Source: Candidatus Scatocola faecigallinarum
Lineage (GTDB): Bacteria; Pseudomonadota; Alphaproteobacteria; RF32; CAG-239
Reading direction: 5' to 3'
Length of the DNA: 64,000 nt
NCBI GenBank assembly: GCA_018713605.1
Contig: DVOM01000036.1
Span: 14,268-78,267 of the forward strand
The position numbers were made by a program, and so were the translations under genes. Positions within the stretch are counted from its first letter, which is position 1; the number at the start of each line of letters is the position of its first letter. A model generated the notes under the pieces. The model made no database searches, was not told the DNA's origin, and worked only from the letters and a program-made list of their open reading frames with translations. Positions 1 through 12,478 of this stretch are shown piece after piece.

Positions 1-1317
1 AAAATTGAATATACAGCCTTGGAAAATCTTAACCCTTATAAAGGAAATCCTAAGGTTCATGACGAGAAACAAATTCAGCAAATTGCTAAATCGATTGAAA
101 GATTTGGTTTTAATAATCCCATTTTGATTGATGAAAAATCAGAGGTAATTGCCGGTCATGGTCGTCTGTTGGCCGCAAGACTATTAAAACTGGAAACAGT
201 TCCGGTGGTTCGTCTTATACATCTTTCTGAAGCAGAAAAACGGGCTTATCGCATAGCGGACAATAAATTATCGGAGAATGGTCGATGGGATACGGATTTG
301 TTAAAGCTTGAATTTTCAGAAATTGAGAAACTGGCTCTAAATCTTGAAGACGAATTGAATCTTGATATTACCGGATTTGATTTCAAGGAAATAGACATTC
401 TTCTGGTTAAAGACAAGCCTAACGAAAAAGCGGATGAAAAACTTAATTCCGTTCCGTATGTGCCGGAAAATGAAATAGTCAGTCAACACGGCGATGTTTG
501 GCTTCTAGGAAAACACAAAATTATTTGCGGAGATTCGTTAAAAGAAGAAACATACCAGCGTTTGTTTGAAGACGTTAAAGCCAATATGGTCTTTACTGAC
601 CCGCCATTTAATGTGAAAATTCAAGGACATGTTTGCGGTGCTGGTCAGACAAAACATAACGAGTTTGCTTTTGCTTCCGGTGAGATGAATGAGGCCGAAT
701 TTATTTCGTTTTTGAAAACATCAATAGCGAATACAGCCAAATATTCTGCTGAAAATTCCATTCATTATGTTTGCATGGATTGGCGGCATATATACGAGCT
801 TCTTTCAGCGGCGAGGGATATCTATCCAAAAATGCTGAATATGGTGGTTTGGTGTAAGAAAAACGGCGGGATGGGAAGTTTTTACCGATCTCAGCATGAG
901 CTGATTTTCGTTTTTCAGAATGGCAAAGGTTCTCATGTTAATAATGTGGAATTAGGCAAACATGGGCGCTATCGAACGAATGTCTGGCATTATGCCGGCG
1001 TTAACAGTTTTGGTTCCGAACAGAAAAATCTCAAAATGCATCCAACCGTTAAACCTGTGGAATTAGTCCGCGATGCGATTTTGGATGCTTCTAAACGCGG
1101 CGATATTGTGCTGGACGCGTTTCTCGGCAGCGGAACAACGCTGATTGCGGTAGAAAAAGCTGGGCGTGTTTGTTATGGAATCGAATATGAGCCTTTGTAT
1201 ATCGACACGATTATCCGCCGATACCATGAACTGACCGGGAATTGGGCCATTCATCAAAGCTCGCAAAAATCATATGAACAATTACTGCAAGAAAAATTGG
1301 AGAAAAACAATGAGTGA
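1..1317 (+). CDS. ParB-like nuclease domain fused to a DNA N6-adenine/N4-cytosine methyltransferase; 5' end runs off the window
   Basis: The frame is open from base 1 (KIEYTALENLNPYKGNPKVH...), so the TTG at 19 is probably internal. N-terminal ParB/sulfiredoxin-like block (NPILIDEKSEVIAGHGRLLAA). Methylase catalytic motif 'FTDPPFN' and SAM-binding 'VLDAFLGSGTT'. This architecture is typical of phage or prophage orphan methylases. Confidence 0.85.
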   Translation, partial: KIEYTALENLNPYKGNPKVHDEKQIQQIAKSIERFGFNNPILIDEKSEVIAGHGRLLAARLLKLETVPVVRLIHLSEAEKRAYRIADNKLSENGRWDTDLLKLEFSEIEKLALNLEDELNLDITGFDFKEIDILLVKDKPNEKADEKLNSVPYVPENEIVSQHGDVWLLGKHKIICGDSLKEETYQRLFEDVKANMVFTDPPFNVKIQGHVCGAGQTKHNEFAFASGEMNEAEFISFLKTSIANTAKYSAENSIHYVCMDWRHIYELLSAARDIYPKMLNMVVWCKKNGGMGSFYRSQHELIFVFQNGKGSHVNNVELGKHGRYRTNVWHYAGVNSFGSEQKNLKMHPTVKPVELVRDAILDASKRGDIVLDAFLGSGTTLIAVEKAGRVCYGIEYEPLYIDTIIRRYHELTGNWAIHQSSQKSYEQLLQEKLEKNNE

Positions 1318-1681
1318 AAGCGGTTATAAAAACCCGCCCAAACATTCGCAATTTCCGAAAGGGTGTTCGGGTAATCCTGCCGGGAGACCGAAAGGAAGCA
1401 AAAACACGCTGAAACTTCTGGATGCTGTTTTGGAACAGAAAATCAAAATCCAGCAAGAGGGCAAAACCATCAGCATTACCAAAAAGCAGGCGATGCTGAT
1501 GCAATTGGTCAATGCTGCGGTAAAAGGCGAGATTAAGGCCATTGCGGCACTTTTCCCGTATATGATGCAGCTAGACATGAAAGAAGAACAATCCTTAGAA
1601 ACAAGCAAATTATCTCTAAAAGATGAGGAAATTTTACAACAATTTTTAGAAGAAAATAAACAGGAGAGTAAAAATGACTGA
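1310..1681 (+). CDS. DUF5681-like phage protein (the kind usually found just upstream of the large terminase; possible small-terminase role)
   Basis: 'MSESGYKNPPKHSQFPKGCSGNPAGRPKGSKN' matches the Gly/Pro/Lys-rich N-terminus I recall for DUF5681 proteins. The ATG at 1310 overlaps the methylase stop (1315-1317), and its own stop overlaps the terminase ATG at 1674. Confidence 0.6.
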   Translation: MSESGYKNPPKHSQFPKGCSGNPAGRPKGSKNTLKLLDAVLEQKIKIQQEGKTISITKKQAMLMQLVNAAVKGEIKAIAALFPYMMQLDMKEEQSLETSKLSLKDEEILQQFLEENKQESKND

Positions 1682-3239
1682 TAAAAATCAGGTTAAAAAT
1701 GCGATATTACGCAAAAGTTTTTCAAGCTTTGTATAGAAATGTTTTTATGAATTAAATCCTTCGGAGACATTTATAAAAGGCGCGTATATAGACTTATTAT
1801 GCGATCAAATCCAAAATATGATAGAGGGAAAAAATCAGAAACTGATAATCAATCTTCCCCCAAGATATTTAAAATCGGTTATATGTTCTATAGCTTTGCC
1901 CGCGTTTATTTTGGGGCATAATCCATCGACTAAAATTATGTGCATCAGCTATGGCGAGGAGTTGGCTTCCAAATTAGCGGCTGATTGTAAGAGCGTTATG
2001 GAGGCGGACTGGTATAAAGCGCTTTTTCCTGAGACGAGAATCCGGACAGATAAAAAATCTGTTATGGATTTTGAAACGACAAAACACGGCGGACGGTTTG
2101 CAACGACAATTTCAGGAGCAGTCACAGGCCGCGGCGCAGACTGGATTATTATAGATGATCCGCTAAAACCGGCTGATGCCCTTTCAGACGTGGTTAGGGA
2201 AAAAATTAATGAACTCTATGGAAATACTGTCAGTTCCAGACTGAATGATAAAAATACCGGGAGAATACTTGTAGTCATGCAGCGTTTGCATGCGCATGAT
2301 TTATCCGGTTTTTTGTTTGAGAACGATCCTGATTTTAAGTCTATCGTCTTGCCGCTAATTGCTGAAAAAGATGAAAAATGGCAAATAAAAAATCGTATTA
2401 CCAAAACGATAACGACATATGAGCGGAAAAAAGGAGAATTGCTGCATCCGGAACGCGAAGGCGAAAAAGTTGTAAACAGTTATCGCAATTCGATGAGCCC
2501 TTTTGTATTTTCTGCGCAGTATCAGCAGAATCCAATGCCTATCGGCAGCGGAATGATCAAACAGGAGTGGATGAAGTATTATCAAGCACTGCCATCAAGA
2601 TTAGATAAAATTATTTTATCGTGGGATACAGCGGCTAAGGCTATGGAAAATAATGCTTATTCTGCCTGCGCGGTTGTCGGAATCGGAAATGAAAATGGTC
2701 AGAAATATTATCTGATAGAGGTGTTTCGCGGCAGACTTAATTTTCCTGAATTAACAAAAAAGGTTCAAGAAATGTCTGATAAATATGAAAGAATTGCGCA
2801 GGGGCGGACTATAACTTTGATTGAAGACGCCTCATCCGGAACTTCTTTATATCAAACGTTGAAAGGCAGAATTGCAAGCCTGAAGTCTGTTTTTTGCAAA
2901 GGTTCTAAGGAGCAGCGCTTTAATATTGTCGCGTTAAAAACCGAGCAAGGGGACTTGTTGTTTCCGGGAAAATATGAATCCTGGTTCACAAATTTTGAAG
3001 ATGAGTTCTTAACTTTTCCGAATTCTTTATTCAAGGATCAATGTGACGCATTGAGCCAAGCCCTGAATTATGGTTTGGAAAATTATAATCAGGTTTCGCA
3101 AAATATGCCGTTGGCCGCCCGCGTGGATACGATGTGCGGTATGGGCGGTTATAATACCGGCATAGAGGAACTCTATAGCATGAATAATATACCATATAAA
3201 TCTAATGGAGGCTATGCTTGGTGGAATGGTAAATCTTAA
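1674..3239 (+). pseudogene. terL: Phage terminase large subunit interrupted by an in-frame TAG at 1734-1736 (the uninterrupted ORF is 1818..3239)
   Basis: Walker-B-like 'DWIIIDDPLKP' and the nuclease-half motif 'ILSWDTA'. The sequence upstream of the listed ORF, in the same frame, reads MTDKNQVKNAILRKSFSSFV*KCFYELNPSETFIKGAYIDLLCDQIQNMIEGKNQKLIINLPPRYLKS. This is the conserved terminase N-terminus broken by one TAG. Confidence 0.8.
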
Positions 3240-3245
3240 GACGTT

Positions 3246-3578
3246 TTACTTGGCGATTATTTCAAAATTGTCAATCAGCTTTAGCAGAGATTCCTTTTGA
3301 GAATCAGTCATAAGGTTGAGTTTGCGGATGATTTTGTCTTTCACGTCCTGCTGCGATATATCTTCTTTCAAATCTTTGGTAATATCAATGTCCAAAGCGA
3401 AAAGCAGTTTGTACAGCGAGTAGGAGCGCGGATTTTGCTTTTGATTCTCAATTAAGTTAATAGACGAATAATCCATACCGCTCAGCTCGGACAATTTTTC
3501 ACTGGAAATTTTGCCGGCTAATCGTCTTTTTCGAATAGAATCGCTGATAAGCCTTAAAAACTCTTTTTCATTAAGCAT
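3246..3578 (-). CDS. XRE-family helix-turn-helix transcriptional regulator (CI-like, no peptidase domain)
   Basis: HTH_3-like segment 'KISSEKLSELSGMDYSSINLIENQKQNP'. It is divergent from the 3700-6503 operon across an AT-rich region with promoter-like hexamers. Confidence 0.75.
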   Translation of the reverse strand: MLNEKEFLRLISDSIRKRRLAGKISSEKLSELSGMDYSSINLIENQKQNPRSYSLYKLLFALDIDITKDLKEDISQQDVKDKIIRKLNLMTDSQKESLLKLIDNFEIIAK

Positions 3579-3699
3579 GCTTCACCCCTTAAAAATATAT
3601 TGGGATGATACAATAGCTTTTTTGATAAAAGTATTGCGATAAAACAATATAATTTTATTGACTAAACAAAATAATTAAATCAACATAAGGAGAAAGAAA

Positions 3700-3993
3700 A
3701 TGGCGTTAGTTTACGTTACGGACATTGAATATCAGGCAGATATAAAAGTATTTGCCGTTAATGAGAGGTATCAGGCTGATTTATGTTTTTTCGAGGTTGA
3801 TCGAGATTACAAGGCCAATACGGAGGCAAAATGGTTTTTTGAAGATAAGGACTATAAAGCGACGGTTAAAATATATTGGGTTGAACATGAGTATCAGGCA
3901 GATCTTAAAGTCTTCCGTGTTACGCAGGAACACCTAGCCGGTTGGCAAAAGAGCCACCGTTTGATTACGAGATTGGGAAAATACACATATTAA
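3700..3993 (+). CDS. Small internally repetitive protein ((E/D)Y(Q/K)A(D/N/T)-type repeats; DUF6150-like from memory)
   Basis: Five roughly 13-aa repeats: DIEYQADIKVFAV / NERYQADLCFFEV / DRDYKANTEAKWFFE / DKDYKATVKIYWV / EHEYQADLKVFRV. A strong RBS (AAGGAGAAAG) lies just upstream of the ATG. Confidence 0.6.
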   Translation: MALVYVTDIEYQADIKVFAVNERYQADLCFFEVDRDYKANTEAKWFFEDKDYKATVKIYWVEHEYQADLKVFRVTQEHLAGWQKSHRLITRLGKYTY

Positions 3994-4005
3994 AGGAGAT
4001 AAAAA

Positions 4006-4254
4006 ATGACAGAGGAAGTTAAAAAAGAAACCCCAAAAACAAAATTGCCCGGCTTGCCGCCGTTGGCTGCGTTTATTTATGCGGTTCTCATTTTTATTAT
4101 GACCATGGGGTACCTTAAGGTATTTCTTATCATGGGTTTAAGGATGAATCCTGATGAAGCCGGAATATTGTCATTTTTTGCGGGAGCCTTTTTTGCCTAT
4201 ATCGGCAACAAAGGAGTTAGAGCCATGTTTAAGTTGAGAGAACTGTTGAAATAA
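4006..4254 (+). CDS. Small membrane protein (two predicted TM helices)
   Basis: Hydrophobic stretches LPPLAAFIYAVLIFIMTMGYL and ILSFFAGAFFAYIG. RBS AAGGAG upstream. Tightly packed within the operon. Confidence 0.5.
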   Translation: MTEEVKKETPKTKLPGLPPLAAFIYAVLIFIMTMGYLKVFLIMGLRMNPDEAGILSFFAGAFFAYIGNKGVRAMFKLRELLK

Positions 4255-4257
4255 AGG

Positions 4258-5079
4258 ATGCAGATTATGGTTAGGATATTACGCGCGGCAACTTGGAACT
4301 TTGGCTACGGTTCTGTTGGTTCACCCAGCAAGAATAACAAGACGAAAGTTCAAAAAGCCCTTGAATATCTGCGGAAAAATAATGTGGATATTGTTTTGGC
4401 GCAGGAAATTTTTGAACCAAGCGAGTTGCGGCGTCTTTATCCTAACCAGATTTATTCTGACATTCCCGTTTATAATCCGCAGGGGCAAGGATTATGGGGC
4501 GCGATGGATTTTTCGATCGATACACGCAATAACAATAGCCGCCCTAAATGGGGAACGGCGATATTGGCTGCCGAGAATGTCAATTTGAACAAAATTGAGT
4601 TAAAATATAGCACGGCCTATCCGGGAAGCATGACTGTTGCACAGATTGCAGGAATGGACATTGCCGTTATTTCCATGTATGGCAAAAATGTCTGCGATTA
4701 TGATAAAGTAACGGCTTTTTCGTATCTGGCCAATCTGCATCGCTGTTTATCCGATACTGCGCCGCTGCTGGACGGTTTTTCTTCTGCCAAAAGATTTATT
4801 ATTGCCGGCGATTGGAATGCCGGGCCGCAATGGGATAAGGAGAAGTCGCGCAAGAATTTTAACTTTTTTGAGCGGTTAGCAACCTTTGATCTTAAGGATT
4901 GTTTGAGGCATTTTCCTGACGGCGGTTATGAAACAACATTTAAACATAACGGGAATCGACAGATAGACTGGATGTTTGCCAGCCAGACGTTTACCGCCCA
5001 TAATCCGCATGTTGATTATGCGGCGGAGATTGAGGATTTGTCTGATCATTACCCGATAATTGCGGAATTTGAGATATGA
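4258..5079 (+). CDS. Endonuclease/exonuclease/phosphatase (EEP) family protein
   Basis: 'ATWNFG' near the N-terminus, 'IAGDWNAG', and the C-terminal 'SDHYPIIAEFEI'. These are the characteristic EEP (DNase I / AP-endonuclease fold) catalytic blocks. No signal peptide. Confidence 0.8.
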   Translation: MQIMVRILRAATWNFGYGSVGSPSKNNKTKVQKALEYLRKNNVDIVLAQEIFEPSELRRLYPNQIYSDIPVYNPQGQGLWGAMDFSIDTRNNNSRPKWGTAILAAENVNLNKIELKYSTAYPGSMTVAQIAGMDIAVISMYGKNVCDYDKVTAFSYLANLHRCLSDTAPLLDGFSSAKRFIIAGDWNAGPQWDKEKSRKNFNFFERLATFDLKDCLRHFPDGGYETTFKHNGNRQIDWMFASQTFTAHNPHVDYAAEIEDLSDHYPIIAEFEI

Positions 5080-5507
5080 AAAAGGGTAATGTAATGTTTT
5101 GGAAATTCTTATTTTTAGGCTTTATTGTATGTTTTTCTGTTCAAGCACAGGAAAAAGCCAATAGTACCAGCGAACAAAATGATTATGGTATCTTTATTAT
5201 CGGTGTTGCGATTTATTTACTTTTTAAAGCAGTGGGGGTTATCTGGCATTATCGCTGTCCGAAATGCAAAAAATGGTGGGTAATGCGACAGGAAAAGAAA
5301 GAACTGCTGAATACGGATGTTATGACCGAATCCAGAAAAGAAGAAATAAAAGACAATAACGGAAATGTGCTGCGGGTAGAGGAAGTAAAGGTTCCTGTAT
5401 TGGTTCATCATTATGAAATTTGGCGAAAATGTAAGCATTGCGGACATCTTGTTAAGATTTTTGAAGACGAGAAGGAAGAAAAATATAACAGAACAACGCT
5501 TAAATAA
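5076..5507 (+). CDS. Membrane-anchored zinc-ribbon protein
   Basis: N-terminal signal/TM segment plus a second TM segment, then two CxxC pairs (CPKCKKWW ... CKHCGH). The start overlaps the stop of the EEP gene (ATGA). Confidence 0.5.
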   Translation: MKKGNVMFWKFLFLGFIVCFSVQAQEKANSTSEQNDYGIFIIGVAIYLLFKAVGVIWHYRCPKCKKWWVMRQEKKELLNTDVMTESRKEEIKDNNGNVLRVEEVKVPVLVHHYEIWRKCKHCGHLVKIFEDEKEEKYNRTTLK

Positions 5508-5522
5508 TGAGAGGAAACAGAT

Positions 5523-6503
5523 ATGCGGAAAATTAGTTGGCTGGCGATTTTGTTGATAGGCGGATGTACTCTGATAGTAGAACAGAGTAATCTTGTTTCC
5601 TTAAATGATTCTTCAGAATTCCGCCTTCTGAATGAACAGGTATTCATACGCTCGTGCCGTCAGCTTAAGGAAGAAAGTTATGATATTTTCTATGCGGCGG
5701 AAAATCAAAAATGTCTGGAAGAGAATGCCAAGCAAATGCAAAAGCTGTCCGAACAGATTGAGCAGACGAATGATTTAATTAAGAAAGAGAAACTTCTTGA
5801 TGATGTATTGGTAAGTTCTGAAAAGTTTGATGCCTGTAAAATATCTAAGGGGTTAACTGTTGCCGGTTTTGCTGAACAATCTAATGATAGCGCTGTTACA
5901 TACTGGAAGCGTGATAAAATAATCGCTTATTTTACCCAAGTCTATCAGATTTGTGAAAACGGAGAATATTTTGATAAGAATGACGGAAACCGTATTGTTG
6001 CGGATTATCAAACTGTGGCGCGGCAAAAAGAGAAAAATACGCCGAAGATAGAAAAATTTAAGGAATTAAAAAGCGAAATTTCCTCTCAAAATCAGATGAA
6101 TAAAAAGATTGCGGCGCTTTTAGTCGAGGACAATCCGATTATAAGAAAAATGCAACAGGCGGCTCCGGATTTTATGCGGGTAAAGGTTAATAAATGTCCG
6201 ATTATCTTTTTTGTCCAGTTTCTTATAGAAGATGCGGCAAAGTTTAATTCTGATTTTGCCTTTACTGACAACTATCAGTTTATGAAAAAAGGCGCAGACA
6301 CGCTTGTTTTGACTGTCGGCGATATTGAATATACTTTCCTGAAAAAAGGAAAAAACAGCGCGGATGTCATCGTTGTCAAAGATGTTGACCAATGGGGCAA
6401 TCAAATAATCAATAAAAGCACTATTCTAAATAACATTGATGTTTCCTCATCGTGCTGGGGGTATGTGAGACATCGAGGAAGAGCAAATTATAATTTCTAT
6501 TAG
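5523..6503 (+). CDS. Putative lipoprotein, function unknown
   Basis: Lipobox-like 'AILLIGGC' at the N-terminus. Last gene of the 3700-6503 co-directional cluster. Confidence 0.5.
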   Translation: MRKISWLAILLIGGCTLIVEQSNLVSLNDSSEFRLLNEQVFIRSCRQLKEESYDIFYAAENQKCLEENAKQMQKLSEQIEQTNDLIKKEKLLDDVLVSSEKFDACKISKGLTVAGFAEQSNDSAVTYWKRDKIIAYFTQVYQICENGEYFDKNDGNRIVADYQTVARQKEKNTPKIEKFKELKSEISSQNQMNKKIAALLVEDNPIIRKMQQAAPDFMRVKVNKCPIIFFVQFLIEDAAKFNSDFAFTDNYQFMKKGADTLVLTVGDIEYTFLKKGKNSADVIVVKDVDQWGNQIINKSTILNNIDVSSSCWGYVRHRGRANYNFY

Positions 6504-6931
6504 TGCCTTCCCAAAAAGATATTTGGTGATAAAATTTAATTTTATTACTGTGAAAACATATATGTTTTTTTGTAAATTAGAAACCTTATCAATTTATTGC
6601 AATATTAAACAGTTTTTTGTATTTATTTAATAAATCCTGACAATCATCATCACAAATATCTGCATTTAGCTTTTTTTACTTCTAATTAATGTGTCTTTTG
6701 GCATCATGGATGATTTCTTTCTATGTTACAGTCTGTAATATAATTTCCATTGAATTTTTCTTCTAGGTATCCTTCTTGGGTAAATTTGGATCTAATAATA
6801 TTTGAAATTTGACTAGAGGGCAAACAATATTGTTATAAACAATCCTCCATTTCTCTGAATATGCTCTCTTATTATAATCTTGTTTTCATATTATTAATTT
6901 AAAATACTTTCAAAACTAATTTTTTAACGTA

Positions 6932-6977
6932 TTGACATTGAAATAAAAAACATATATTAATTTACCAAATAGGTAAA
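6932..6977 (+). promoter_or_regulatory. Predicted sigma70-type promoter plus inverted-repeat operator of the higB-like operon
   Basis: TTGACA (6932-6937), a 17-nt spacer, TATTAA (6955-6960), then the inverted repeat TTTACC-aaata-GGTAAA (6961-6977). This all lies 20 nt upstream of the GTG at 6997. Confidence 0.5.
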
Positions 6978-6996
6978 TTTTAAGAGAATAACTATA

Positions 6997-7320
6997 GTGA
7001 AATTAATAATAGATAATGGACGCTTAATAAAGCAATTAAGCGATGAGAAGAACTCAAAAAAGGCTTTTGGGGAATTGTCTGACTCTGTATATAGGAGAAT
7101 CCAATATCTAGAAGCAGCAGAAACTCTTGCAGATGTTTCGCATCTTCCTCCTCATAGAAGACATGTATTGACGGGGAAATATAAAGGGTGCTTTGCAATT
7201 TGTGTTGACAAGCGGCTTAGAATAATTTTTAAGCCAAACGAGGATGGTAATAACGATATTTCAAATTTATCCAACATAAGAGAAGTATGCATAATTGCAA
7301 TTGAGGACTATCATGACTGA
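6997..7320 (+). CDS. higB: HigB-family (COG3549 'killer protein') type II toxin
   Basis: The overall pattern and the C-terminal '...IIAIEDYHD' parallel Proteus vulgaris HigB (...LNYEDYH). 'HVLTGKYKGCFAICVDKRLRIIF' corresponds to 'HPLKGDREGYWSITVRANWRITF'. Confidence 0.75.
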   Translation: MKLIIDNGRLIKQLSDEKNSKKAFGELSDSVYRRIQYLEAAETLADVSHLPPHRRHVLTGKYKGCFAICVDKRLRIIFKPNEDGNNDISNLSNIREVCIIAIEDYHD

Positions 7321-8443
7321 GATGGAAAAGAAAATGAGCAACAACCCAAAAATTATATATGAAGGTATTCCATATTTTCATCCAGGACTGTTATTGAAGG
7401 AAATCTTGGAGGCTAGAGGTATTGAGCAAAAAGATTTTGCACAAAGAACGGGATTTACAGAAAAACATATATCCTATGTATTAACCGGTAAATCAGATAT
7501 TACTCCATCTTTTGCTGAAAAATTGGCGATAACCTTAGAAGAATCTGCTAATACGTGGATGAATTTGCAGTCTAAATTTGATGTAATAAAAAAAGAAGTC
7601 GAGTTAGCGGAAGAATTAAAAGATCATGTTAAATTGCTTAAAGATTTTCCTATCAAGGATATGGTAAAGAATAGGTTAATTGCTCCAGTAAAAGAGCCAT
7701 GGAAACAAGTAAGAGAGCTTATGTCGTTTTTTGCTGTGGGAGACATAACAAAACTAAAACAATTTTCAATTAACAACTACTCTGTTAGATATAGGGCATT
7801 AAATACAGGCGAAACATCCGAAGCTAAAGCTGTTCTATTTAGATGGGGAGAGAAGATTGCTATTGGACGAGAAACTCCACCACCCTATAAAAAAGAACTA
7901 TTAGAACAGGCTGTAATAAATATTCGGAATAACATGTTATTATCTTTCGCAGACGCCTTAGAGTATATAAAAGAAGAACTTAAAAAAGCAGGTGTTATAT
8001 TCATATTTACCCCAAAAATTAGCAATGCACCTGCTTCCGGATATAGTTATAGGTATAAAAGTAATCCTGTTATTCTTATAACCTACCGAAATCGGCAAAT
8101 TGATACTTTTTGGTTTTCTTTATTCCATGAAATATATCATATATTAAATGGTGATCTTGATATGGAAGAAAGTAAAGAAATGGAAATTGCTGCAAATAAG
8201 TATGCAAAAAATACTATTATTCCTTTAAAAGATTGGGTTCTTTTCTGGGCTGGCAATTCCAGGAATATTACAGAAGAAAAGATATTAACTTTATCGTCTA
8301 AGTTTAATGTTCCTAAAGCAAGTATTATAGGACGGCTTCAGGTGGAAAAATTTATTAAACAATGTGATTTTTTATACTTAAAAGAAAAAATGGATATTAA
8401 AACATTTGATGGAATAATATTTGAAGAGGAGAATATTTTATGA
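7313..8443 (+). CDS. HigA-type HTH antitoxin fused to an ImmA/IrrE (COG2856) zinc metallopeptidase domain
   Basis: N-terminus 'FHPGLLLKEILEARGIEQKDFAQRTGFTEKHISYVLTGKSDITPSFAEKLAITLEESANTWMNLQ' is a HigA (COG3093) signature. The C-terminal half carries the HExxH motif 'LFHEIYHILNGD'. The ATG at 7313 overlaps the higB stop. Confidence 0.8.
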   Translation: MTEMEKKMSNNPKIIYEGIPYFHPGLLLKEILEARGIEQKDFAQRTGFTEKHISYVLTGKSDITPSFAEKLAITLEESANTWMNLQSKFDVIKKEVELAEELKDHVKLLKDFPIKDMVKNRLIAPVKEPWKQVRELMSFFAVGDITKLKQFSINNYSVRYRALNTGETSEAKAVLFRWGEKIAIGRETPPPYKKELLEQAVINIRNNMLLSFADALEYIKEELKKAGVIFIFTPKISNAPASGYSYRYKSNPVILITYRNRQIDTFWFSLFHEIYHILNGDLDMEESKEMEIAANKYAKNTIIPLKDWVLFWAGNSRNITEEKILTLSSKFNVPKASIIGRLQVEKFIKQCDFLYLKEKMDIKTFDGIIFEEENIL

Positions 8444-9591
8444 CAGAATATGTTTTTTACTATCCAATTTTAAAATGGAAGCAAGGAGAATACAAAGCTC
8501 TTCATAGTCTAAACCCACAAATAAAAGATCGTATTTGTCCAATTATTGAGATAACACCTATAGGTTATGATCCTGAAAGTAAAGAAAATAGAATAACAAT
8601 AGATGAACATATAAAAGACATTGGTATAAGGCTGCGAAAATATTGGGAAGATAGAACATCTTTTATTGATACTATAAAATTAGATGCACCAGAAGAACAA
8701 AAACCTGCATATGTAAATAAAATTTTTGATAATTGTTTTAATTCTTTTTGCAGAGTTATTCCAGTTGTTCACTTGAAAGATAGTGATCAATTATTGAAAA
8801 CATATAAAGAAATCATAAAAAAACATAGATATGGCTGTATGCTAAGGGTAAATATGAATGAAATTGCGGATGATATAGCAGATAAAGTGAGAGCAATTTT
8901 AGAGAAACTTGATACTAATGCTACAGAAACATACTTATTAGCTGATTTTGATGTTATCAAAATTGGTGACGATGAAGTTTATGATATTTATTCTGAGCAA
9001 TTATGCAAAATATTTAATATTTTTGATTGGCATACAACAATAATTGCAGGATCCTCTTTCCCAGAAGAAATGACAGATGGAACTCTCAATAATAGATATG
9101 AGTGGAATTTATATGACAATTTTCTGAAGAAGTTTGCGATAACATCTAAAGAACCTAAATTTTCTGATTATTATATTTTAAATCCTGAGCATTCTTTTCC
9201 TCATGATGGAAAAATAATTAAGCCGAAAGCTAAATTACGTTATACCACAAATAATGGATGGTATTTTAATAAAATTCCTCCAAAATCAAAAAGAAATAAA
9301 GATATAGATGAAGTGGGTAAAGAATTAACAGAAGGAGAAAAATATAAATTTCTGTGTAAAGATTTAATAGCTAACTCTATTTTTAGAGGACCCTCATTTT
9401 CAAAAGGTGATGAATACATATATAAACAAGCAACAGATCCAAAAGCTAAAGGAGGAAATGCATCAATCTGGGTGGAAGCTTCTACTAATCAACACCTTAC
9501 CAAGGTCGTAAATGATTTGTCCAAGCTTCTCGGTTTTTCATTGCGTTGCGAACAAGGTCTTTTAGGTCTTTTAGAGAGAACTCTTGAGTAA
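8440..9591 (+). CDS. Beta-protein (PF14350)/sce7725-like family protein, function unknown
   Basis: The N-terminus 'YYPILKWKQGEYKALHSL' matches my recollection of the YxPxLKxKxGExxAL signature of this family. ATGA overlap with the upstream ImmA-fusion gene. Confidence 0.55.
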   Translation: MTEYVFYYPILKWKQGEYKALHSLNPQIKDRICPIIEITPIGYDPESKENRITIDEHIKDIGIRLRKYWEDRTSFIDTIKLDAPEEQKPAYVNKIFDNCFNSFCRVIPVVHLKDSDQLLKTYKEIIKKHRYGCMLRVNMNEIADDIADKVRAILEKLDTNATETYLLADFDVIKIGDDEVYDIYSEQLCKIFNIFDWHTTIIAGSSFPEEMTDGTLNNRYEWNLYDNFLKKFAITSKEPKFSDYYILNPEHSFPHDGKIIKPKAKLRYTTNNGWYFNKIPPKSKRNKDIDEVGKELTEGEKYKFLCKDLIANSIFRGPSFSKGDEYIYKQATDPKAKGGNASIWVEASTNQHLTKVVNDLSKLLGFSLRCEQGLLGLLERTLE

Positions 9592-10096
9592 GACGTGTAT
9601 AAAGTTCTTCTTTGTTTTTACGTAATTCTTTGGATGGGATCCCTTTAGAATGAAGCAAATTTATAACCTCATCTTTCCACAAAAGCTGTACTAGTGAATG
9701 AGAATCAACATTCTTATTTAGTTTACCTTTTCTATATTGTTTAAATTTTATAGTTCTGTTTTTTGTGTGTTTAACAAGTTGTATTTCCCACCAATCAGGT
9801 ATTATTTCTAAAGCCTTTTGAAGATGATTTTCTCCAACTACTAGTGTAGCTTTATCCAAAATTTTACTATAAACTTTTTCTTGATAAGGTAATCTATCTA
9901 GAGTATCCGCTTCGCTTTTTATTTCGTATCCATGAAGAGATCCATTTACAACAGCAATATCAACTCTGCATGCTCCCTGTAATAATCCTAATTCATTGAG
10001 CACAATAGTATCAAAAGCATCTTCATGTTTTTTCAGAATATTATTATACAGACTCTTCCTTATATCTGAATCTTTAAGTAAATCGCGATTCATCAA
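9497..10096 (-). CDS. sce7726/MmcB-like PD-(D/E)xK nuclease-fold protein
   Basis: 'NELGLLQGACRVDIAVVNGSLHGYEIKSEADTLDR' gives an E...D-x12-ExK arrangement typical of restriction-endonuclease-fold proteins. It is convergent with the Beta-like gene and overlaps it by 95 nt. Confidence 0.55.
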   Translation of the reverse strand: MMNRDLLKDSDIRKSLYNNILKKHEDAFDTIVLNELGLLQGACRVDIAVVNGSLHGYEIKSEADTLDRLPYQEKVYSKILDKATLVVGENHLQKALEIIPDWWEIQLVKHTKNRTIKFKQYRKGKLNKNVDSHSLVQLLWKDEVINLLHSKGIPSKELRKNKEELYTRLTQEFSLKDLKDLVRNAMKNREAWTNHLRPW

Positions 10097-10154
10097 TTAA
10101 AGCCCCAAGCATTTAAAAGTTAAAATTTAGTTAACAAATTATATTTTATATAGT

Positions 10155-10685
10155 ATGTTAAATCAACTTAATAAAGATTATATTAACAAATTTCCTTTTT
10201 ATTTGACAGAAATAATGACTAAATGGGATGAAGTAGGAATAATATTTGTGATTAAAATTATAGATTTTGATCTTTCTCTAAGTTTTCAGCGTTTTCCTGA
10301 AGGATACAGAGATGATCAATCTGAATTTGTAGAACTTAAAGGTGAAATCGTTTTTTCAAGCACAAAAAATTATCTCAAAGGAACTCATGTTCCTATTTAC
10401 GCTTTTACAAAATTTGAACATCCCAATCCTTCTGATCCAAGTGTTTTTGAGTTTAAATATTCTGGAAGACAAAGAATATACGACGATGCGCCGTTGGCTG
10501 GCGCTTTTGATGGAAAATATGCACACATCTCTGTAAATGATCGATTTTTACAAACATTGTGCTTTATAAAACAATTAAATAAGGATGCTTATTTAGCATT
10601 TAATTGTGTTCGTAAAAAATATCAAAAACCATGTATTAAAAGTTACACTCTAAGTACAGAATTCAATCTTGAAGATTATGAGTAA
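10155..10685 (+). CDS. Hypothetical protein
   Basis: A 176-aa ORF in the AT-rich island with no motif I recognise. It is the only long ORF in this interval apart from a short ORF (10342..10536) nested in another frame. Confidence 0.4.
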   Translation: MLNQLNKDYINKFPFYLTEIMTKWDEVGIIFVIKIIDFDLSLSFQRFPEGYRDDQSEFVELKGEIVFSSTKNYLKGTHVPIYAFTKFEHPNPSDPSVFEFKYSGRQRIYDDAPLAGAFDGKYAHISVNDRFLQTLCFIKQLNKDAYLAFNCVRKKYQKPCIKSYTLSTEFNLEDYE

Positions 10686-11038
10686 CTATTTTTAGAAATA
10701 TTAATAGATAAAATCCCTGTTCTTTGATCAAAATATCCCTGATAAATTTATGGGTAGTTAGGTGCTATTCAAGTAAATCTGCATATTTGTGGGAATTTTG
10801 CATGTAAAATCCACCCAAATTTCCCTGTAGATTCCCTGTTATTAGAAAATGGGTAATGATGTATTTGTGATTCAGGAGTCGAAAAGATTGGTGGTCAACA
10901 AAATTTATTGGCGTTATATTGGAAATTGAGTTGAACAATATTGTGTTTAACCATAAATAGCGGATATTTGTTTAATTTTATTTGATTCTTTTAAGTATCT
11001 TGGTACTCTGAAAATATAGGTTTATAGGGTAAGTTAAG

Positions 11039-12478
11039 ATGCTGGAACGAATTAGAAATCTTTTACAACAAGGCGAAGGTCTCAAGGTCGAATTTAAGGA
11101 AGCCCAAGGTGGTATGCCGAAAAGTCTCTATGCGACGGTATGTGCATTTTCCAATACGCAAGGGGGCGAAATACTTTTGGGTATCGCAGATAATGGCCAA
11201 GCTTTAGGTATTGCACCGAATAAGGTGGCTCAATATAAAAAGGATTTTGTTAATACAATAAATGATTCTGGTAAAAATTGTCCGCCTCTATATTTATCTA
11301 TTGATACTGTAGAAATTGATGGAAAAATAATTCTATATGTTAATGTTCCACAAAGTTCAGAAGTTCAACGTTGTGACGGAAAAATTTATATCCGCAATGA
11401 AGATGGTGATTTTGATATAACACACCAACAAAATCGTGTTGCTAATTTGTATGCTCGTAAACAGAATACATATTCTGAAAGTAAAATTTATAAGAATGTT
11501 GCATTAACAGATTTAAGATTGGATTTGATCGCTCGCGCGAGAAAATTGGCTGTTATTCGGCAACCTGGACACCCATGGACAGAACTGAACGATTTGGAAT
11601 TATTGAAAAGCTCTGGATTATATAAAAAGGATTATATTTCCGGTGAAGAAGGCATAACGTTGGCAGGAATTCTACTACTCGGTAAAGATGATGTTATAAA
11701 ATCTGTACTTCCTCATTTTAAAACTGATCTAATTATTAGAGTAAAAGATTCATCTCGTTATGATGATAGAGATGACGTTAGGACGAATCTTATAGAAAGT
11801 TATGACCATATCATGGATTTTGTTAATAAACACCTCCCATCACCTTTTTACTTAGAAGGATCTGTAAGAGTAGATGTACGAAATGTTATATTTCGAGAAA
11901 TAGCTGCTAATTTATTAATTCATAGAGAATATAACAGCCATTTTCCAGGAAGGTTTGTTATTGAGAAAGATAAAATTTTTACAGAAAATGGAAATAAACC
12001 ATATATTCATGGAAATATTAATCCTGAGCTAAGTGTTCCATACCCTAAAAACCCAACGATTGCTAAGTTCTTTAAGGAAATTGGCTTAGCAGAAGAGTTG
12101 GGCTCCGGGGTTAGGAATCTTGTAAAATATTCAAAGTTTTATGCTGGATATATTCCTGTTTTAACGGATACAGAGATTTTTAGATTAGATTGGAAAATTA
12201 ACTTATTTGATGAAAAAGAACAAGATGTTGTAGAGATTAGTGATCAAGTTAGTGATCAAGTTAGTGATCAAGTTAGTGATCAAGTTAACAAGATTCTTGA
12301 GTTTTGTTTGTCACCGCGTTCATTAGTTGAAATTATGGCGCAAACAAAATATGCAAGTAGAGTGCACTTTAGTAATAAGATATTAAAGCCTTTAATTAAG
12401 AAAGGATTAATTAAACAAACTGCACCAAATAAACCGAATAGTCCTAATCAAAAATACGTTACGGTAATTAAAGAATGA
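11039..12478 (+). CDS. AlbA_2 (Schlafen-like 'divergent AAA') / HATPase_c_4 / C-terminal wHTH protein
   Basis: The N-terminus 'EGLKVEFKEAQGGMPKSLYATVCAFSNTQGGEILLGIADNG' is the classic AlbA_2 signature. Mid-region motifs 'REIAANLLIHREY' and 'AEELGSGVRN' fit HATPase_c_4. The C-terminal 'LKPLIKKGLIKQT' looks like a winged helix. Confidence 0.75.
   Translation: MLERIRNLLQQGEGLKVEFKEAQGGMPKSLYATVCAFSNTQGGEILLGIADNGQALGIAPNKVAQYKKDFVNTINDSGKNCPPLYLSIDTVEIDGKIILYVNVPQSSEVQRCDGKIYIRNEDGDFDITHQQNRVANLYARKQNTYSESKIYKNVALTDLRLDLIARARKLAVIRQPGHPWTELNDLELLKSSGLYKKDYISGEEGITLAGILLLGKDDVIKSVLPHFKTDLIIRVKDSSRYDDRDDVRTNLIESYDHIMDFVNKHLPSPFYLEGSVRVDVRNVIFREIAANLLIHREYNSHFPGRFVIEKDKIFTENGNKPYIHGNINPELSVPYPKNPTIAKFFKEIGLAEELGSGVRNLVKYSKFYAGYIPVLTDTEIFRLDWKINLFDEKEQDVVEISDQVSDQVSDQVSDQVNKILEFCLSPRSLVEIMAQTKYASRVHFSNKILKPLIKKGLIKQTAPNKPNSPNQKYVTVIKE
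12239..12286 (+). repeat. Perfect 12-bp tandem repeat (AGTGATCAAGTT x4) encoding SDQV x4 inside the AlbA_2 gene
   Basis: Read directly: agtgatcaagtt repeated four times head to tail, in frame, in the linker before the C-terminal wHTH. Confidence 0.95.

Follow-up and report, generated by a model that had tools for sequence, protein, structure and literature searches.

A PD-λ-2-like operon with a different HigB-family gene and a convergent P4-type cII gene in an uncultured gut alphaproteobacterium

The locus described here lies in a 64,000-nucleotide stretch of contig DVOM01000036.1 from Candidatus Scatocola faecigallinarum, hereafter called the window, and consists of four open reading frames (ORFs) spanning positions 6997-10096. 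Genes A, B and C are co-directional on the plus strand, and gene D converges on them from the minus strand. Gene A (6997-7320, plus strand) has a GTG start and encodes a HigB-like, RelE-fold protein of 107 amino acids (aa). Gene B (7313-8443, plus strand) encodes 376 aa from its ATG, a fusion of a HigA-type Xre helix-turn-helix (HTH) domain with an M78 (ImmA/IrrE) zinc metallopeptidase. Gene C (8440-9591, plus strand) encodes a 383-aa Beta-family protein with a predicted TIM barrel. Gene D (9497-10096, minus strand) encodes a PD-(D/E)xK nuclease-like protein of the P4 cII/sce7726 family, which measures 199 aa from a TTG start or 198 aa from a conserved ATG at 10093. A and B overlap by 8 nucleotides (7313-7320, ATGACTGA), and B and C overlap by 4 (8440-8443), where ATGA contains both the stop codon of B and the start codon of C. 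These features are read directly from the sequence, and a preliminary description of the window had reported the same operon, facing gene and overlaps. As judged by homology, the locus is a divergent hybrid, namely a PD-λ-2-like operon in which the HigB family has been exchanged, together with a P4-type cII nuclease gene. All four proteins have matches among the PHROG phage families.

The HigB-type character of gene A had been proposed earlier, and its match to PF05015 (HigB-like_toxin) lies above the cut-off (30.4 bits; cut-off 27). The protein also matches phrog_3066, annotated 'toxin of TA system' (TA, toxin-antitoxin; E = 1e-9). Its GTG start is shared with homologues, and the gene order is that of HigBA, with the toxin first: the RelE-fold HigB-like gene lies upstream of the HigA HTH. 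Residue H56 is invariant and stands opposite the histidine of Proteus HigB in 'klHplkG', in a weak alignment (E = 0.55), and the C-terminal residues Y105 and H106 are invariant within the clade of the window locus. H56, Y105 and H106 may be the counterparts of H54, Y91 and H92 of HigB, and their presence is no more than suggestive. No PADLOC model, including PD-Lambda-2_A, matches the window protein or its orthologue in the homologous locus L005, even at E <= 10.

Gene B proves to be the HigA-ImmA/IrrE fusion that the preliminary description had recognized. The protein matches HTH_3 (E = 3e-8), TIGR02607 HigA (E = 4e-15, 55.5 bits; cut-off 47.7) and Peptidase_M78 (PF06114; E = 1e-6, 28.9 bits; cut-off 22), and residues 22-95 align to the solved HigA 4mcx at 1.7e-8; the HigA domain is of the Proteus type. 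B differs from a stand-alone antitoxin of about 100 aa in that a linker of about 130 aa and the M78 domain follow the HigA domain in the same protein. The catalytic motif, FHEIYH, is intact on alignment: the HExxH residues H272, E273 and H276 and the downstream glutamate E291 (numbered from the ATG) are present, and HExxH plus glutamate is invariant in 40-41 of the 41 Beta-linked M78 peptidases. Among PADLOC models, B matches PD-Lambda-2_B (E = 7e-28, 96 bits), with residues 33-346 aligned to positions 69-377 of the 402 in the model, and it also gives weak capP matches, which are stronger for locus L028. The closest annotated relatives of B (L080-L083) belong to RelE/ParE plus HigA-M78 cassettes on plasmids of Microscilla, Tenacibaculum, Deinococcus and Paraburkholderia. 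What lies downstream of these cassettes varies: a Fic-family gene that overlaps the cassette by 4 bp, a gene for a restriction S subunit, a hypothetical gene, or nothing. The cassette looks like a front end that can be moved between contexts.

Gene C belongs to the Beta family, as had been suggested (PF14350 Beta_protein; E = 6e-63). The same suggestion had equated Beta with sce7725, and this part does not hold: C has no match to the NCBIfam sce7725 model (NF033831) at E <= 0.01. Only 2 of 28 diverse Beta proteins touch that model, weakly (best E = 1.5e-4), and sequence comparison would place sce7725 no closer than a distant branch within the Beta family. Two PADLOC PD-Lambda-2_C models match C over its full length (E = 2.4e-35 and 3.9e-33). 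The PADLOC 'beta' model gives 8.5e-8 for C and 8e-188 for P4 beta itself. Exhaustive searching yields about 2,100 Beta clusters at 50% identity, in which the window clade is a single cluster plus two short fragments, and its next relatives are at most 40% identical. Recovery of relatives of C depended on the method: a single-protein locus search found 1, word-indexed protein searches found 9 and then 38, and an alignment-based locus search was needed. In three loci from metagenome-assembled genomes (L004, L074 and L076), the Beta gene is broken into two ORFs, which could reflect a frameshift, a pseudogene or an assembly error. L004 also has a gene for a DUF6932 protein, not HigB, upstream of its peptidase gene.

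Structure prediction, which the preliminary description had proposed for the Beta protein, gives strand-helix alternation typical of a TIM barrel (AlphaFold2; predicted local distance difference test score (pLDDT) 83.9, predicted template-modelling score 0.85). Across Beta proteins, residues Y7, E17, P34, D77, P108, D169, D243, G323 and H352 are invariant, and R136 is nearly so. Most of the conserved residues are found at the C-terminal ends of strands or immediately beyond them, which is where the active sites of TIM barrels are usually located; the polar ones are E17, D77, D169, D243, H352 and R136. Because conserved polar residues occupy this position, Beta appears enzyme-like, and the model makes it more likely to be an enzyme or a ligand-binding sensor than a simple 'antitoxin'. 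The Foldseek matches are all to generic TIM barrels (aroD, aldolases, TIM and UVDE), none with a template-modelling (TM) score above 0.40, and among viral models the sole match is another Beta homologue. A profile search against PDB sequences gives nothing meaningful.

Gene D, which faces the operon, falls in the sce7726 family as earlier proposed (NF033832 sce7726_fam; E = 3e-52, 177 bits; cut-off 70). It matches the PADLOC 'cll' model (E = 6e-35) and is 27.5% identical to P4 cII over 96% of its length by tblastn, and we refer to its product as cII. Searches of PDB sequences and Pfam-A give no sequence-level match. A restriction-endonuclease signature had also been reported for this gene, and it is present, with a spacing of 11 residues rather than the 12 first described (D46-x11-E58-x-K60). 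These three residues and E35 are invariant in 25 and in 61 homologues. The AlphaFold2 model of D has a pLDDT of 94.2, and its sole Foldseek match below 1e-3 is 3dnx (SPO1766; E = 3.5e-4, target-normalized TM 0.48), which we take to be an MmcB-like/DUF1052 representative; weaker matches include the Bax1, tRNA-splicing and Can2 nuclease folds. On this model and motif, cII is a predicted PD-(D/E)xK nuclease. A cII-like nuclease core (query residues ~30-150) is also found in 470 phage records, mostly of large Staphylococcus and Bacillus phages, and in most of these records a Beta partner was not detected. Gordonia phage Powerball encodes both cII and a Beta-fold protein (BFVD TM 0.77).

These matches connect the locus to two systems with experimental anti-phage phenotypes. 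One is gop-β-cII of satellite phage P4, which reportedly goes back to work by Ghisotti in 1990 and is listed in DefenseFinder/PADLOC as Rst_gop_beta_cll. The satellite can do without its genes gop, β and cII, which defend against λ and P1 (Rousset et al. 2022, PMC9122126), and the phage accessory gene orf184 triggers gop-β-cII to kill the cell. The other is PD-λ-2, a three-gene abortive-infection system of E. coli ECOR42 that acts against λvir (Vassallo et al. 2022, Nat Microbiol, PMC9519451). Its genes A, B and C encode, in this order, a HigB-like protein, a fusion of Xre and peptidase domains, and a protein described as 'related to a P4 phage antitoxin'. B is toxic by itself, A rescues this toxicity, and defence requires C (PMC9519451). 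The preliminary description had called the locus a candidate uncharacterised system, and had called sce7725 and sce7726 only a conserved pair of unknown function. These labels are out of date, because B and C match PD-Lambda-2_B and PD-Lambda-2_C, and C and D match beta and cll. Its inference of defence by abortive infection is supported by homology to both systems, and the PADLOC comparison that it proposed gives matches to defence models for B, C and D and none for A.

The coding regions of C and D overlap tail to tail by 95 bp (9497-9591, shared by both strands), an arrangement set by both stop codons and not remarked on in the preliminary description. At the nucleotide level no other part of the locus is as well conserved, with a three-way identity of 0.90 among the window, L005 and L009 at 9515-9574. 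Overlap at the 3' coding ends is found in 51 of 54 convergent Beta/cII pairs, drawn from many phyla and including those of several phages (Rac-SA53, Mycofy1); its length ranges from 11 to 107 bp (median 59), and 49 of the 51 lengths equal 2 modulo 3. P4 is an exception. An ORF-calling artefact was rejected as the explanation, because the stop codons fix the overlap and because it recurs across phyla. An inherited dual-coding arrangement explains the conservation. A structured RNA in the overlap is not proposed: folding of the 95 bp is no better than that of shuffled sequences on either strand (z = -1.1 and -0.15), and no Rfam family matches 6400-10800 at E <= 1. A terminator scan likewise detected no intrinsic terminator between C and D. 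The overlap may in addition link the expression of the two genes, by antisense pairing or by transcriptional interference, and the conserved arrangement could represent a regulatory principle. Within the overlap lies a perfect 9-nucleotide repeat (AGGTCTTTT, 9555-9574, 2.2 copies), which translates as GLLGLL in Beta and as LKDLKDL in cII. Homologues keep the GLLGLL of Beta.

The region upstream of gene A has the appearance of a promoter under autoregulation, in which the HTH of B would have its operator. The preliminary description had started the element at 6932, which is non-coding and holds the conserved TTGACA, a hexamer resembling a -35 element; gene A starts with the GTG at 6997. A sigma-70-like sequence (6932-6960, plus strand) combines TTGACA (6932-6937) with a TATTAA-like -10 element near 6955-6960 and presumably acts as the promoter of A-B-C. 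L005 and L009, with coding DNA that is only ~55-70% identical, conserve the sequence TATTGAC(A/T)TT at the same spacing. Between the -10 element and the start codon, at 6959-6979, is a perfect inverted repeat, AATTTACC-N5-GGTAAATT, which has no assigned strand and occurs only once in the 64-kb window. A repeat search and comparison show that its arms are invariant and its spacer variable across the window, L005 and L009. This candidate operator may be bound by the HigA-type HTH of B. Gene D seems to have a promoter region of its own (10097-10170, minus strand), where a promoter scan finds TTGATT-17-TATAAT at 10166-10138 with 10 of 12 matches; the region is 81% identical over the window, L005 and L009, which exceeds the identity of flanking coding DNA. 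A possible direct repeat (AATTTGTTAA...) around this promoter proved unsupported.

The genomic setting is much as first described: an AT-rich island with a terminase, a ParB-methylase and a Schlafen-like gene nearby. GC content is 0.28-0.34 in the island from 6 to 12 kb and ~0.5 across the remaining window. The LeuRS sequence shows 96% identity to its counterpart in metagenome-assembled genomes of uncultured gut Alphaproteobacteria. A ParB-N6/N4 methyltransferase gene and a large terminase gene (19-3239) lie upstream, 3.7 kb from the system. The gap between terminase and system (4006-6503) contains four unannotated genes, which encode a small membrane protein, an endonuclease/exonuclease/phosphatase-family protein (4258-5079), a Zn-ribbon/transmembrane protein (5076-5507) whose start overlaps the preceding gene, and a 326-aa protein without a family match. 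No portal, capsid or tail genes follow the terminase in the window element, as judged from the ORF list and family scans, and family scans detected no P4-type genes in the flanks of the system. In L005, the ParB-methylase and terminase pair (1305-4450) is likewise upstream, only ~110 bp from the system, with a small DUF5681 gene between the two members of the pair. Host housekeeping genes lie on the other side of the system in both the window and L005. The system may occupy a terminase-proximal cargo site that ends a prophage-like element, a position reminiscent of the cos-proximal hotspots in P2 and P4.

On the other side of gene D, the ORF at 10155-10685 was considered as a system member and excluded; it is not conserved with the gene at the same position in L005. 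Beyond it is a Schlafen/AlbA_2-HATPase_c_4-Fic_C gene (11039-12478). At 12237-12287 this gene contains 4.2 copies of a perfect 12-nucleotide tandem repeat, TTAGTGATCAAG, which encodes (SDQV)4 and could be a linker of variable length.

A comparative survey covered 66 Beta-encoding loci from species-representative genomes, annotated with iterated profiles, and the counts given here are among 67 non-redundant loci; the architecture frequencies are approximate because sampling relied on one N-terminal peptide pattern. The most common arrangement is Beta with a convergent cII gene only (29 of 67). In 19 loci, Beta and cII are accompanied by a nearby split pair, an Xre HTH protein of ~128 aa and an M78 protein of ~340 aa, in two arrangements. 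In Burkholderiales and Xanthomonadales (L033-L054, L078, L041-L048 and L071), the HTH gene of this pair overlaps the M78 gene, and the pair resembles ImmR/ImmA. Ten loci are canonical PD-λ-2 without cII. The window's own layout, with an M78 fusion upstream of Beta and cII, is found in 6-7 loci. These include the window clade as well as L028, L032 and L037, three loci with bona fide proteins PD-Lambda-2_A and _B (for L028, 3e-38 and 3e-145, respectively). P4, with gop, accounts for the remaining architecture (1 of 67). Overall, cII is found with Beta in ~84% of the loci, usually convergent with it. In Variovorax, cII is co-directional with Beta rather than convergent. An M78 peptidase module is near Beta in 36 of the 67 loci (~54%), in at least three architectures. 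Beta loci commonly adjoin other defence genes, such as AbiJ and HEPN genes in L012 and a SIR2 gene in L164, and Beta-cII pairs are found on the temperate phages Rac-SA53, Mycofy1 and Gordonia phage Powerball.

Relatives whose Beta proteins are 62-71% identical to C keep the full four-gene layout, the 95-bp overlap and the coupling of B to C (L005 and L009). Their flanks differ: in L005 the system is directly after a terminase gene, and in L009 it is beside WYL, Bro-N and HEPN genes. In a rough, distance-based neighbour-joining tree, the Beta protein of the window is nested among Betas from pair-only loci, apart from both PD-λ-2 clades. This placement suggests that A and B were acquired secondarily and, together with the varied cargo of their plasmid relatives, points to modular assembly, in which HTH-protease or toxin modules have been attached more than once to a Beta-cII core. 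The core pair is ancient, widespread, often phage-borne and usually stand-alone.

We consider it likely that the locus is an abortive-infection defence system in which the Beta-cII core is under the control of the TA-like HigB/HigA-M78 module. In a possible sequence of events, the HTH of B, complexed with A, would occupy the TTTACC-N5-GGTAAA operator in uninfected cells and hold A-B-C expression low, with A and B each restraining the activity of the other. Once Beta or the peptidase senses a phage cue, the activity of the M78 peptidase, of HigB or of both would be freed and the operon de-repressed. The outcome could be translation arrest, proteolysis, and Beta-dependent activation and DNA cleavage by cII, with expression of Beta and cII coupled by their obligate antisense overlap. 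This detailed sequence (operator complex, cue, release and de-repression, cII cleavage) is drawn from PD-λ-2 genetics and from ImmA/IrrE/CapP precedents, and we offer it as a tentative scheme in which doubt outweighs confidence. The protease-gated nuclease put forward in the preliminary description is a plausible mechanism, but because canonical PD-λ-2 defends without cII, cII is not the sole effector in the family.

Several observations weigh against defence under a TA-like control module. Gene A belongs to a different RelE-fold family from PD-λ-2A and lacks a PD-Lambda-2_A match, so the behaviour of A and B may differ from that published for PD-λ-2. B scores 96 bits on PD-Lambda-2_B, as compared with 480-610 (3e-145 to 4e-184) in canonical members. 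Roles are not fixed across the family, because PD-λ-2 works without cII and P4 has gop in place of the peptidase. The plasmid relatives of A and B precede unrelated cargo or none, so that A and B could form an autonomous TA cassette. The predicted fold of Beta points to no specific chemistry, and the survey recovered its loci with a single N-terminal peptide pattern.

The autonomy of A and B can be taken further, to a selfish HigBA-type addiction cassette that stabilizes the island and has no cross-talk with Beta-cII, a separate defence pair. The unrelated or missing cargo downstream of the plasmid RelE/ParE plus HigA-M78 cassettes nearest to B fits this idea, as do the stand-alone Beta-cII pairs of 29 of the 67 loci and of 93 E. 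coli genomes, the position of the window Beta among pair-only Betas in the rough tree, and the description of RelE plus Xre-COG2856 as a stand-alone three-component TA prediction (PMC2701414). However, the ATGA coupling of B to C is preserved in L005 and L009, at least three kinds of M78 module stand beside Beta in 36 of 67 loci, which is unlikely by chance, and PD-λ-2 defence needs the Beta gene together with A and B (PMC9519451). We regard independent cassettes as unlikely. A pure transcriptional switch of the CapH/CapP, ImmR/ImmA or DdrO/IrrE type is less probable still. Here the HTH would repress, M78 would cleave the HTH after DNA damage or infection and so raise Beta expression, Beta-cII would kill or restrict, and HigB would be a degenerate accessory. 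The operator-like inverted repeat conserved at the promoter, the 19 loci that have a split Xre HTH and M78 without HigB, as in ImmR/ImmA, the weak capP matches of B and the IrrE/DdrO and ImmA/ImmR switch precedents (PMC2701414, PMC6868357) are all in its favour. Against this stand the toxicity of PD-λ-2B alone and its rescue by A (PMC9519451), which are unexpected of a pure repressor-protease, and the ability of canonical PD-λ-2 to defend although it lacks cII. Moreover, A keeps the invariant histidine (weakly aligned to a catalytic histidine of HigB) and the C-terminal Tyr-His, which argues against a degenerate protein.

A locus with no defence role seems very improbable. It would combine an ImmR/ImmA-like lysis-lysogeny switch with a nuclease/TIM-barrel pair for phage DNA metabolism, and it draws on the adjoining terminase and ParB-methylase genes, on the cII-like core in 470 phage records, including those of many lytic Staphylococcus and Bacillus phages, and on the Beta-cII pairs of temperate phages. 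Yet the P4 genes are dispensable for the satellite and confer defence (PMC9122126), the same four genes occur in the non-phage flank of L009 (WYL, Bro-N, HEPN), portal, capsid and tail genes are absent after the window terminase, and Beta loci are often beside defence genes (L012, L164). Defence by a Beta-cII core under the HigB/HigA-M78 module remains our preferred reading, and the known systems to which it relates are compared below.

The locus resembles PD-λ-2 in having three co-directional, coupled genes in the same order (RelE-fold HigB-type, Xre-HTH/M78 fusion, Beta). In canonical PD-λ-2 loci, such as those of Winslowiella (L072) and E. coli C (L164), the three models are matched at 3e-28 (A), 4e-184 (B) and 5e-155 (C). 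The upstream ORFs of canonical loci match PF09907 HigB_toxin in 11 of 18 cases and PD-Lambda-2_A at 3e-28 to 3e-38. In contrast, gene A of the window belongs to PF05015, not PF09907, and lacks a PD-Lambda-2_A match. C is a distant member, with 120 bits on PD-Lambda-2_C as compared with 514 in canonical members. A convergent cII gene is attached in the window, unlike in the canonical loci of Enterobacterales, Vibrio and Pseudomonas, and the host is an uncultured gut alphaproteobacterium rather than E. coli. The ECOR42 clone reached only ~390 bp past the three genes, and from the cloned coordinates and the canonical homologues we infer that the tested clone lacked cII. Downstream of Beta, the ten canonical PD-λ-2-like loci show no conserved gene that would take the place of cII. 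In E. coli C (L164, from NZ_CP029371.1; 6135-7652), a convergent SIR2-family gene lies 80 bp past beta, at the usual position of cII; this placement is not general, and other canonical loci carry unrelated genes there.

With gop-β-cII, the locus shares a Beta gene followed by a convergent cII/sce7726-family gene, and a toxic-type co-directional gene upstream of beta; in P4, gop and beta are on one strand. The window has no gop, and HigB and the HigA-M78 fusion stand in its place: iterated searching with P4 Gop across all loci and the window returned P4 and nothing else, and no window protein matches the PADLOC 'gop' model. P4 cII differs from D in its length of 264 aa, its C-terminal extension and the 27-bp gap, with a terminator, that separates it from beta, and P4 Beta is only ~19-22% identical to C. 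The window locus also lies outside a P4-like satellite or cos-proximal hotspot and in an alphaproteobacterial host.

The closest relatives of C (37-40% identity) and D (~52%) outside their own clade are in stand-alone Beta/sce7726 pairs. These share the convergent arrangement and the overlapping 3' ends with the window and have no upstream HigB/peptidase module. Examples are the pair of a Rac-type prophage in 93 E. coli genomes and Emin_1452 and its neighbour in Elusimicrobium minutum. A literature search found no experimental data on this two-gene form, nor a mechanistic paper for PD-λ-2 or gop-β-cII.

The front of the operon resembles the three-component TA of RelE and Xre-COG2856, a stand-alone prediction by Makarova, Wolf & Koonin 2009 (PMC2701414). 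As in RelE/HigB plus Xre-COG2856 loci, the HTH and M78 domains are encoded together (here fused) after a RelE-fold gene, and there is a promoter palindrome. In ImmR/ImmA, DdrO/IrrE and CapH/CapP, by contrast, the protease cleaves a separate repressor and there is no RelE toxin or Beta/cII cargo; the window cassette is, in addition, translationally coupled to Beta.

It is conceivable, although we would not count on it, that PD-λ-2, gop-β-cII and thousands of unannotated Beta/sce7726 pairs form one ancient immune superfamily, in which a Beta-cII core locked by antisense overlap has repeatedly received control modules: two kinds of HigB plus HTH-M78 fusion, split ImmR/ImmA-like pairs, and Gop. 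If so, Beta would catalyse a step new to bacterial immunity, on nucleic acid or a small molecule, and the window would hold a complete form, rarely seen, in which a single locus combines all the parts. Because gene A is unrecognized and there is no gop, current hidden Markov model sets would probably miss or half-call such variants. The locus is one natural construct with a predicted RelE-type RNase, M78 protease, TIM-barrel protein and PD-(D/E)xK nuclease, and its composition and the comparative survey suggest that PD-λ-2 and gop-β-cII, which are catalogued separately, share a Beta core, with or without cII, and swappable modules.

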